A stretch of 14,225 nt of DNA, from NCBI RefSeq assembly GCF_006345805.1, contig NW_021825852.1, forward strand, positions 1 to 14,225, in the 5' to 3' direction. Positions 609 through 9,259 of this stretch are shown one piece after another. Positions within the stretch are counted from its first letter, which is position 1. Each line of letters opens with the position of its first letter. A program made the position numbers and the translations under genes. The stretch is from Octopus sinensis. Lineage: Eukaryota. The notes beneath the pieces are model-generated. The model made no database searches. It was not told the DNA's origin and saw only the letters and a list, made by a program, of their open reading frames with translations.

Positions 609-734
609 CACACACATATACACACACATATATACACACACACGCGCGCACACATACACACAGTTATGTTATATTTTCTGCTTGTTGTCTTTTTATTTAA
701 TCCTGAAAACAAATATATGTGTGTGTGTGTGTGT
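567..734. repeat. (CA)n microsatellite (567-662) and short (TG)n (718-734)
   Basis: Seen directly. Confidence 0.95.
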
Positions 735-744
735 ATAAAAATAA

Positions 745-1920
745 GCAACAGGATATCAAGAGGTGATGCAGCACGACTGTTTCAAGCGGCTCCATGTAAT
801 TGAGCAATACAATCATTGCATCAATTCAAATGCAGGGCTATCCTCAGCTGCATAAATAAATAGAATTTTTAATCAGTTGGACTCATTAATATAATTTTAC
901 TCAAATTCCCTAATAGAGCAAAAAGCGGGAAAGAGTCCATGTTGCTACTAATGTAGCTAAGAATTTAATACACTTCTAAGAACTATGAAGTTTGTTATGG
1001 TCATGGCTTGTAAAGGATGGTGGTTCATATTTAATTTATTAGTCTTTTTTTAAAGGGAAATTAATTTTTAGAGTCATATATGATGTGAACTTACCCCCTA
1101 GTATTATAGATAATAAGTTATATATTTTCTTACTATTTTCTATAATTTCTGGTTATTTTGTTTTCTTATTTTGATAACTTTACCTATTAATCTCTTATCT
1201 CTTATGTTATCAATGTTCTTAAAGAGAGATATAAACTTTCTAGTCACTTAAGTCTATGAGAGTTGATTATAATATACCCATAATAAAATACAAATATTTG
1301 TGTGTATTTGCATGTGTGCACATAGTTAAATATGTGTATTATCTGTGCACAACTTTTTTTCCGACTTTTTTTTTCTGATTCTTAGCTTATAATTAATATA
1401 AAGATAGCATGATTTATCGCCCCAGTATTCCATAAGTAAATACCCAGAGCAATCTTTACAGAAACCATCAAATAAGTAAATAATTAAGTACAGGAATGAA
1501 TATTAAACTAATTCTATGTAATCTTCCCTTTCTAATGTTGAAAACAGTTTATCTATTCTGGTTATAATATCACTTTTGATAATCTTAAATTTTATCTTTA
1601 TAACAATAATATTGTATACACAATCATCCATTGTACCCCATGATAATTTCCTCTGTATTAACATCATAGGTTTTATTAGCGCCTTGCCCCTTTAACTGGT
1701 AATTAACATCTTGATTTGAGGTCTTACTCTGCCCAGCCTCCTTTATTGACAGTTACTTTATACTAATTCTAAACTCCTGACAATTGTTATGACCATACTC
1801 AACTATAAACTGTCAACTCACTCCTGCATTCCATTCTAAACAGATGTTGTCCTCTTGCCTTAGATTTGGTAGTTGCTAAAGAAAATAATTTTAAAATTCA
1901 CAATTCTTTACAAGCTATGA
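745..1920 (-). mobile_element. Probable heavily decayed Penelope-like retroelement remnant
   Basis: Carries the hammerhead at its 3' end. The minus-strand translation at about 1230-1060 gives SLFKNID...KL*KIVRKYITY...HI*L*KLI, which resembles the PLE GIY-YIG endonuclease C-terminal pattern WKIL.K..Y...C.LCL.EK..I with W and C codons mutated to stops. This protein evidence is weak and the boundaries are uncertain. Confidence 0.5.
766..853 (-). ncRNA. Degenerate minimal type I hammerhead ribozyme (Penelope-like element type)
   Basis: The minus strand reads ATGCAG-CTGAGGA-[stem II: AGC..AATTGA-T-GCAAT-loop GATTGT-ATTGC-TCAATT..GCT]-GAAA-C-AGTC-G-T-G-CTGCAT. It has a perfect 6-bp stem I and both core boxes (CUGANGA, GAAA) in the correct order, with a minimal stem III. 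The cleavage triplet is GUG, which is non-canonical. Confidence 0.75.
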
Positions 1921-1923
1921 TTC

Positions 1924-1931
1924 TATCTATC

Positions 1932-2012
<81 letters not shown>

Positions 2013-2017
2013 GTGTA
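1924..2017. repeat. Compound (TCTA)/(TA)n/(TG)n microsatellite
   Basis: Seen directly. Confidence 0.95.
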
Positions 2018-2376
2018 TGTGATTAAAATATGTATTGTAAACAAACATATACCAAATAGAAAACACAGAGGGTCACCAACTCCACTTCAATTATCGGCAA
2101 GAAGGTCAAGCGCAATGTCAGCCCTTATTGATAATATTACTCTCACTAACGGTCTCGTCTCGAACCCGTCTCCTTTTATTATCTTTTGGTCCCGTTCCCG
2201 GCAAGTTTCTTGCCGATGTCCCCAGAGTGGAATCAACATTATCGATAATGGTCGAAATTGCGTTTGATCCTCTGGCTGATAACTGATGAAATGTTGGTGA
2301 TACTCTGTGCTTTCTGTTTGCTTGTGAATTTAGTATATATTCATATGTTTGTTTACAACACGATTTTTTAATCACA
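2018..2376. mobile_element. Non-autonomous DNA transposon (MITE/foldback) with long terminal inverted repeats, TGT...ACA ends, flanked by TA
   Basis: Termini are TA|TGTGATTAAAA...TTTTAATCACA|TA. TTGTAAACAAACATAT is present on both arms. 2053-2147 aligns ungapped to the reverse complement of the right arm at about 70/95 by hand count. The spacer is about 80 bp. Confidence 0.85.
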
Positions 2377-8108: not shown

Positions 8109-8330
8109 TCTTTTATTTTGCTTCATTAGACCGTGGCCAGGCTGGGGCAACCCCTTGAATTTTTAGGCGAATGAATGGACCTCAGTCTCAGTCTTTTTTT
8201 AAGCCCGATAAATATTCTATTGGTCTCTATTGCAGAACTGCTAATATACGGGGACGTAAACAACCCAATATCGGTTATCAAGCGATGGTGGGAGGCAAAC
8301 ACAGATTCAAAGACACACACACATACATAC
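8109..8330 (-). mobile_element. Family A SINE, diverged 3' half
   Basis: tattctattggtctctattgcagaactgctaatatacggggacgtaaac...atcggttatcaagcgatg is the reverse complement of 9065-9140. 8109-8155 matches the reverse complement of 9190-9240. Confidence 0.85.
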
Positions 8331-8846: not shown

Positions 8847-9259
8847 GCAGGAGTGACTGTGTGGTAAGTAGCTTGCTAATCACCCACATGGTTCCGGGTT
8901 CAGTCCCACTGCGTGGCATCTTGGGCAAGTGTCTTCTGCTATAGCCCCGGGCCGACCAATGCCTTGTGAGTGGAATTGGTAGACGGAAACTGAAAGAAGC
9001 CTGTCGTATATATGTATATATATATATATGTGTATATGTTTGTGTGTCTGTGTTTGTCCCCCTAGCATTGCTTGACAACCGATGCTGGTGTGTTTACGTC
9101 CCCGTAACTTAGCGGTTCGGCAAAAGAGACCGATAGAATAAGTACTGGGCTAACAAAGAATAAGTCCCGGAGTCGATTTGCTCGACTAAAGGCGGTGCTC
9201 CAGCATGGCCGCAGTCAAATGACTGAAACAAGGAAAAGAGTAAAGGAGTAAAAGAGTAA
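8847..9259 (+). mobile_element. Full-length tRNA-derived SINE family A (CORE-like central motif; octopus-type SINE)
   Basis: A-box-like tgactgtgtggt at about 8854 and B-box-like ggttcagtccc at 8897-8907. gtggcatcttgggcaagtg resembles the CORE/MIR motif. It has an internal (TA)/(TG) tract and a (TAAAAGAG)n tandem tail. Partial copies occur elsewhere in the window. Confidence 0.92.

Follow-up and report, generated by a model that had tools for sequence, protein, structure and literature searches.

A decayed, inverted hammerhead motif with a long stem II in Octopus sinensis, probably from a Hydra-type Penelope-like element

The hammerhead ribozymes of Penelope-like elements (PLEs) have been described as minimal by Cervera and de la Pena (2014, PMC4209133): they are of type I, with a stem III of 1–2 bp, a palindromic loop and a helix II of 6–8 bp, usually closed by G10.1-C11.1. 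In the model given there they cleave as dimers, and they are found in thousands of dispersed truncated copies. The Hydra clade of PLEs, as presented by Craig et al. (2021, PMC8557442), has a type I hammerhead near the 3' end of the element. The traits given there as diagnostic are RWK, DKT, a CxCX5C linker, and CxxC and CxH around E and N; the GIY-YIG endonuclease is C-terminal. These elements insert in (TA)n, carry an inverted 5'-truncated copy and have a tail at one end, described as 30–40 bp. They are generally shorter than 3 kb, a trait which is descriptive only and not diagnostic. The families listed have stem II arms of 12–26 nt, and 14 of the 25 listed in File S2 have U/U at the base of stem II; Hydra-1_Obim, the sole octopus family in that source, has an arm of 23 nt. 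In two spike-moss elements of the same file, PLE-X1_sMoe and PLE-X1_sTam, CUGANGA is separated from GAA by about 54 and 48 nt; both elements are flagged there as deviating from the canonical hammerhead structure. They can be taken as a precedent for long arms in PLEs. They differ from the elements described below, since they are endonuclease-less plant elements which target rDNA, given as single consensus entries with no covariation reported there. The core-only hammerhead search of the same work used a spacer of 7–17 nt. Non-LTR retrozymes (bioRxiv 10.64898/2026.07.22.740005) also have type I hammerheads, related to those of PLE pseudo-LTRs, in short non-coding tandem repeats. In the PLE of the anole (PMC11167929) cleavage by the hammerhead is protein-assisted; in the experiments described it is dispensable for insertion in vitro, and no RNA-seq ends are reported at the cut site. 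For a squid genome, 235 hammerheads of Rfam have been listed (PMC6962438).

We will start with a stretch of 14,225 nt from Octopus sinensis (contig NW_021825852.1), which we call the window. Its features are given in Table 1. On the minus strand, from 853 to 766, it contains stem I, CUGAGGA, 57 nt, GAAA, C-AGUC-G, UG and the second strand of stem I: the elements of a type I hammerhead in order, exactly as the original prediction had claimed. A hammerhead descriptor applied to both strands of the window gives this motif as its single match. Among 1000 dinucleotide-shuffled windows a match with a stem I of at least 4 bp is found in one and with at least 5 bp in none. Our model R1, which has the window copy in its training set, scores positions 760–859 with 84.1 bits. 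The energy of the 88-mer is ordinary (z = -1.39; 17 of 200 shuffles fold equally well). The Rfam hammerhead models, proposed as a check, do not match the window at E<=5. They also give no hammerhead at the gathering score in 10 loci and no match to an intact copy at E<=10. Copies with a short arm (in L151, L157 and L160) are likewise missed, so that the miss is not specific to the long arm.

Table 1. Features of the hammerhead motif and of the insertion that contains it, with the loci that have two-ended insertions
Feature	Position	Strand	Basis
(TG)n run flanking the left junction	716-734	.	repeat scan
Inverted terminal copy of the end of the element, reaching 37 nt beyond the cut site	735..1051	-	locus comparison
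Decayed type I hammerhead, with triplet GUG and a broken stem III palindrome	766..853	-	descriptor, paralogue comparison
5' strand of stem I, forming 6 Watson-Crick pairs with 771-766	848..853	-	descriptor and covariation
Catalytic core CUGANGA (CUGAGGA here)	841..847	-	paralogue columns
Stem II arm of 57 nt, with U/U at its base, a basal helix (839-832 pairing with 793-785), an AU-rich middle and an apical hairpin	784..840	-	alignment, RNAalifold, covariation
Apical 7-bp hairpin with 3-nt loop; register conserved across families, not favoured in the window copy	806..822	-	covariation, folding
GAAA core (783-780) and stem III hexamer C-AGUC-G (779-774)	774..783	-	descriptor, paralogue comparison
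Cleavage triplet GUG (U773, G772); predicted cut between 772 and 771	772..774	-	paralogue comparison
5'-truncated body: 3' non-coding region	1053..1920	+	locus comparison
Right-junction microsatellite of (TA)n/(TG)n	1921..2021	.	repeat scan
Two-ended insertions with the short/long pattern	L003, L009, L010, L011, L016, L031, L038, L049, L055, L088		

The insertion has the organization of the Hydra clade: location in (TA)n, an inverted 5' copy and a tail at one end are all found, although the tail, of about 85 nt, is longer than the one described for that clade. The inverted terminal copy has the shorter of the two 3' ends found in the family. The body starts just after the position of the endonuclease stop codon of the paralogues and breaks off before its own hammerhead. 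The window copy holds no coding sequence; in other copies the body continues into a hammerhead on the same strand. A scan of the window for further pieces of the element found none. In 94 alignments of family copies most ends fall in one of two places, 36–45 nt or about 124 nt beyond the predicted cut, and adjoin a microsatellite. Two-ended insertions usually have one short (about +40) and one long (about +124) end, which is the tail pattern of PLEs. Since inserted copies extend 37–42 or about 124 nt past the cut, their templates were uncut at the downstream hammerhead, and reverse transcription began downstream of it. In this respect the family resembles the anole element (PMC11167929). These ends count against a simple part for cleavage in producing the template.

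Beyond the cut site, several blocks of the tail are conserved between families (L002:1398-1532 on the minus strand, L131:1859-1993 on the plus strand and eight more copies), a candidate for a reverse-transcription start signal. A possible GGUGC/GUACC hairpin, nearly invariant, lies about 85–105 nt downstream of the cut, just before the long 3' end; in 10 aligned copies of the tail RNAalifold gave no structure and no covariation for it.

The identity of the element is apparent upstream, in its paralogues. Walking through them we have found a GIY-YIG region, which carries a CxCX5C linker and, at its end, CxxC and CxH, and then an RT core, which places the motif in the terminal repeat of a PLE, as had been anticipated. 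The GIY-YIG Pfam match of the paralogue region (E=3e-4) is just below the cutoff. In natural copies the motifs are RWK in L131 and RWI, RWT or RWR elsewhere, together with DKT, CxCX5C, CxxC and CxH. Paralogues and sister elements have RT and C-terminal GIY-YIG in one ORF, with open frames of 709–787 aa and no in-frame UGA. These traits agree with those described in PMC8557442, and the element may be placed in the Hydra clade, an assignment made by motifs and not by an RT tree of named members. The RT of an older copy of the window family is 66% identical to that of a sister. In L091, L092 and L093 the ORF is stretched to about 950 aa or more, as RT and endonuclease are separated by long insertions of Asn-rich, low-complexity sequence. 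These insertions, and a distance of 0.6–1.7 kb from endonuclease to hammerhead, differ from the Hydra clade as described in PMC8557442, and the protein of Hydra-1_Obim is different by eye.

Two other identities were discarded. A tandem non-LTR retrozyme is ruled out because there is no tandem array at the locus and the family is dispersed and codes for RT and endonuclease. A SECIS-bearing PLE of the Naiad type is ruled out by the C-terminal endonuclease and the absence of in-frame UGA in the open frames; a conserved AA at SECIS spacing was not seen by eye in the alignment of 19 representatives described below. As for outside relatives, the long proteins found are mostly 30–44% identical. The family also occurs outside the Octopus sinensis assembly: contigs from the runs of three other organisms cover the arm, and their alignments list no indel in it. 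In metagenomes a protein scan found no relative, and a pattern scan gave 44 loci, whose best R1 score was no better than E 0.065.

The window copy itself is probably inactive. In the assembly searched (2.72 Gb, 13,516 contigs) a query of 161 nt around the motif gave 2,416 candidates; the best 40 were scored, and the full-length ones are 88–94% identical, self excluded. We have compared it with 78 distinct copies chosen by similarity, 21 partial hits and 6 duplicates having been left out. Position 17, in the triplet, is A in 74 of them, G in 3 and U in 1, so that the family triplet is GUA, which conforms to NUH, and the GUG of the window copy does not. Its stem III hexamer is not self-complementary, with A at position 778, where the paralogues have G in 60 cases and A in 14; the predicted self-duplex of stem III has -1.8 kcal/mol, versus -7.8 kcal/mol in an intact paralogue. 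In all, 7 of the 88 positions of the window copy depart from the majority of their column. The original prediction that this copy is probably dead is thus supported for two of its three reasons, the triplet and the palindrome. The third, the U/U base of stem II, is not a sign of decay: the two U's are present in 73 and 74 of the 78 paralogues, as well as in the Hydra families quoted above. Nor is the family loop AGCU, the palindrome named in the original prediction. In the window family it is C-GGUC-G, which is self-complementary if two G.U pairs are counted; C-GAUC-G is found in older subfamilies and C-AAUU-G in sister families. In an older subfamily the palindrome is perfect and the first stem II pair changes from A-U to U-A. 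Intact-looking relatives are frequent, as had been suspected: 53 of the 78 paralogues have the full core with NUH, and 37 have a self-complementary stem III hexamer as well. Antisense to the body, with no partner, GUG and no palindrome, the window copy would be unable to perform dimer cleavage and is, on its sequence, an inert fossil.

Within this young family the conservation of the core (0.974) is little above that of the flanks (0.92–0.94), as neutral decay would predict. Position 843, the variable N7, has G in 53 paralogues, A in 14, U in 7, C in 1 and a gap in 3. The signal of selection comes from the comparison of families.

For this purpose we have aligned 19 sequences: the window copy, one intact paralogue and the 17 of 45 cluster representatives with alignable arms of 56–60 nt. 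Invariance of the core in this alignment is circular, since all except the window copy were selected with a pattern in which the core is fixed. Without guidance RNAalifold finds stem I, the basal part of stem II and an apical 7-bp hairpin with a triloop; 11 of the 20 pairs are double-changed. In the named structure 87.5% of 472 cells are paired, versus 27–49% in slid controls. Double-changed cells are 74, versus 26 in shuffles (none of 500 reaches 74), counts which overstate significance because of the relatedness of the 19 sequences. Of the 25 pairs, 13 change on both sides, a value reached by 23 of 500 shuffles, and the score for further pair types is reached by 233 of 500. In stem I four of the six pairs change on both sides across families. 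The palindrome pair 86-89 is A-U in 9 sequences, G-C in 7, G.U in 1 and unpaired in 2. Compensatory changes are thus found in stem I, in basal stem II, in the distal triloop hairpin and in the dimer palindrome, which includes the covariation in stems I and II that had been proposed as a test. Along an independent endonuclease tree, ladder-like and built from those 31 of 60 hits that have a downstream arm of 52–63 nt, the apex pair 44-52 goes from U-A through U.G to C-G, and the palindrome switches between CG and AU several times.

The apical part of the arm requires some comment. An inner helix of 11 bp had been proposed, and the minimum free energy fold of the window copy is indeed this helix. 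The register conserved across families is a different one, the triloop hairpin 822-806, in which 94.7% of the cells are paired. The changes that favour the inner helix are rare in the family (position 818 in 4 of 78 paralogues, position 804 in 6 of 78). The AU-rich middle of the arm has no fixed register. For a monomer, folds that leave the core open are predicted to be rare in all 19 sequences (P 3e-7 to 0.08), and several sister sequences prefer other pairings; these predictions fit help from a dimer or a protein and prove neither. The 3' strand of stem I is repeated internally at 836-831, and this repeat might hide the core. We considered such a switch and rejected it, since stem I still forms (P 0.79 in the window copy and 0.95 in L003) and the sister families lack the repeat.

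The long arm is a trait of the family, as had been guessed from the single copy. An endonuclease search gave 18,099 candidates, of which 150 were scored, and 40 loci chosen at 49–63% identity were examined with a descriptor open to arms of 8–120 nt. A sense hammerhead is found downstream in 23 of them; the arm has 55–60 nt in 22 and 48 nt in one. Such an imperfect stem II hairpin, often opened by U/U, is unlike the minimal PLE hammerheads and the arms listed for the Hydra clade. We have also searched the whole genome with the pattern CTGANGA-N-GAAACRRTYGTA and, as a control, with the reversed pattern. For N 8–36 there are 5,304 matches (control 15), for N 37–49 1,794 (control 9), for N 50–66 9,798 (control 24) and for N 67–95 1,839 (control 20). 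Arms of 8–95 nt total about 18,700 core-pattern matches, a few of them nested and most counted without a check of stem I. Details of each class come from the first 100 matches listed. Other families in the genome have arms of about 13 to more than 90 nt with unrelated apices, and one group of families has arms of 38, 39, 44, 50 and 68–69 nt through indels. In the literature we have found no report of hammerheads with a long stem II in cephalopod PLEs; minimal PLE hammerheads are reportedly treated by Lunse et al. in 2017, whose alignments or supplement may hold cases. Hammerheads in PLEs, their cleavage as dimers and the Hydra elements have all been described before. The long-armed stem II of octopus Hydra-type PLEs is likely an overlooked form of this known ribozyme, and a predicted cutter.

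Further families with arms of 63 nt and 67–95 nt appear among the matches listed and in L134 and L146-L148, most without a check of stem I or clade. In L134 a distant RT (39%) lies about 4 kb upstream of a long-arm hammerhead.

Two sister elements, L131 and L132, are complete tandems: hammerhead, about 215 nt, ATG, RT, endonuclease and hammerhead. Their hammerheads lie on the same strand, 4,627 and 4,790 nt apart, so that these units of 4.6–4.8 kb exceed the size given for the Hydra clade in PMC8557442. Such pairs fit dimer cleavage. In the window family two same-strand hammerheads are found 3.1 kb apart in L063; a pair is absent at the window locus. We consider it likely that the motif of the window is a decayed inverted hammerhead of a Hydra-type PLE, that in intact tandems its relatives cut as dimers after GUA, and that stem II is a covarying hairpin which closes the core. 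A read-through transcript of a tandem element would fold a double hammerhead, with the stem III strands swapped through the palindrome, probably helped by the protein of the element. The predicted cut falls after GUA in the paired hammerheads; made at the upstream copy, it would release a unit RNA whose 5' end is defined and lies ahead of the ORF. The stem II hairpin of 55–60 nt likely closes the core without misfolding. The arm may have been free to grow because these hammerheads seem to have no contact between loop I and loop II, while selection keeps it paired. Against this reading stand the uncut templates of the inserted copies, the anole results on insertion and RNA ends (PMC11167929) and the predicted rarity of open-core monomer folds.

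It is possible, if somewhat unlikely, that the apical triloop hairpin is instead a sequence-specific docking site, probably for the element's own protein, which would couple ribozyme folding or template choice to the RT complex. The apex is the best kept part outside the core: its column conservation is 0.80, versus 0.67 for stem I and basal stem II and 0.57–0.63 for the flanks. A purely structural role does not fully explain an apex better kept than stem I. AU richness inflates column conservation. The length of the arm in the loci picked by endonuclease is stable while the distance from endonuclease to hammerhead varies from 583 to 1,742 nt in the tree of 31, and the anole hammerhead described in PMC11167929 cleaves only with its protein. 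On the other hand, the triloop register is weak in the window family (P 0.17 in L003 and 0.00 in the window copy), and families of the same genome vary in arm length with unrelated apices, one group by indels from 38 to 69 nt. This wide range between families favours tolerated growth of the arm under selection for pairing; the stable length and conserved apex in the window group leave room for a docking site.

A different role, which we think quite unlikely, is that the hammerhead acts mainly 5' of the ORF: cleavage of a tandem transcript would give an uncapped RNA translated from about 215 nt downstream. The ATG of L131 and L132 is found at about this distance from the upstream cut site, and self-cleavage is reported to drive cap-independent translation in fungal RNA viruses (PMC13725137), a result which comes from fungi and plants. 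However, the long arm remains on the 5' cleavage product and cannot act on the cut RNA that bears the ORF.

It is very doubtful that the fold is kept for a non-cleavage role or as a passenger, with no cutting in vivo. All the inserted copies examined run past the cut site, PLE clades without canonical hammerheads proliferate well according to PMC8557442, and metazoan PLE hammerheads are described in PMC4209133 as having low activity in vitro. But between families N7, stem I and the sequence of stem II change, whereas core, NUH triplet and palindrome stay the same, the pattern expected under selection on catalysis. A chance arrangement in AT-rich DNA, to which the unexceptional fold energy and the lack of an Rfam match might point, is extremely improbable: the shuffled windows speak against it, and the excess of matches over the reversed pattern and the covariation refute it.

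The octopus families bear on why PLEs keep hammerheads, given that insertion in vitro could do without cleavage in PMC11167929, the only system in which this has been tried. They form a graded series, with core, triplet and palindrome fixed and stem II from about 13 to more than 90 nt, a natural set for asking what the arm and the dimer do. Descriptor limits such as the spacer used in PMC8557442 can hide thousands of hammerheads, and some PLEs scored as hammerhead-less may carry long-armed forms. A broader proposal, tentative and in our opinion unlikely, is that a radiation of Hydra-type PLEs has placed more than 13,000 long-armed hammerheads (stem II of 37–95 nt) in this genome, missed by Rfam and by published descriptors, and that in the largest group the conserved triloop binds the element's own protein, making it a protein-gated dimeric ribozyme.

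Some other repeats were met in the course of this analysis. An abundant hammerhead family with a short arm of 16 nt (L151-L156) forms inverted pairs at distances of up to 4.2 kb, and the DNA between the two hammerheads gave no match to RT or endonuclease; the family may be non-autonomous or a more distant PLE. Any RT or endonuclease match is found in 4 of 20 short-arm loci, partial and in some cases out of line with the motif. The window also contains inverted dispersed SINE-like repeats, at 19-200 versus 8854-9035 (87%) and 8196-8295 versus 9058-9157 (79%). The first of them, which we take to resemble a known octopus SINE, recurs in many of the loci examined. Imperfect inverted repeats at 350-484 (73%) and 2016-2378 (69%) are possibly MITE-like remnants.
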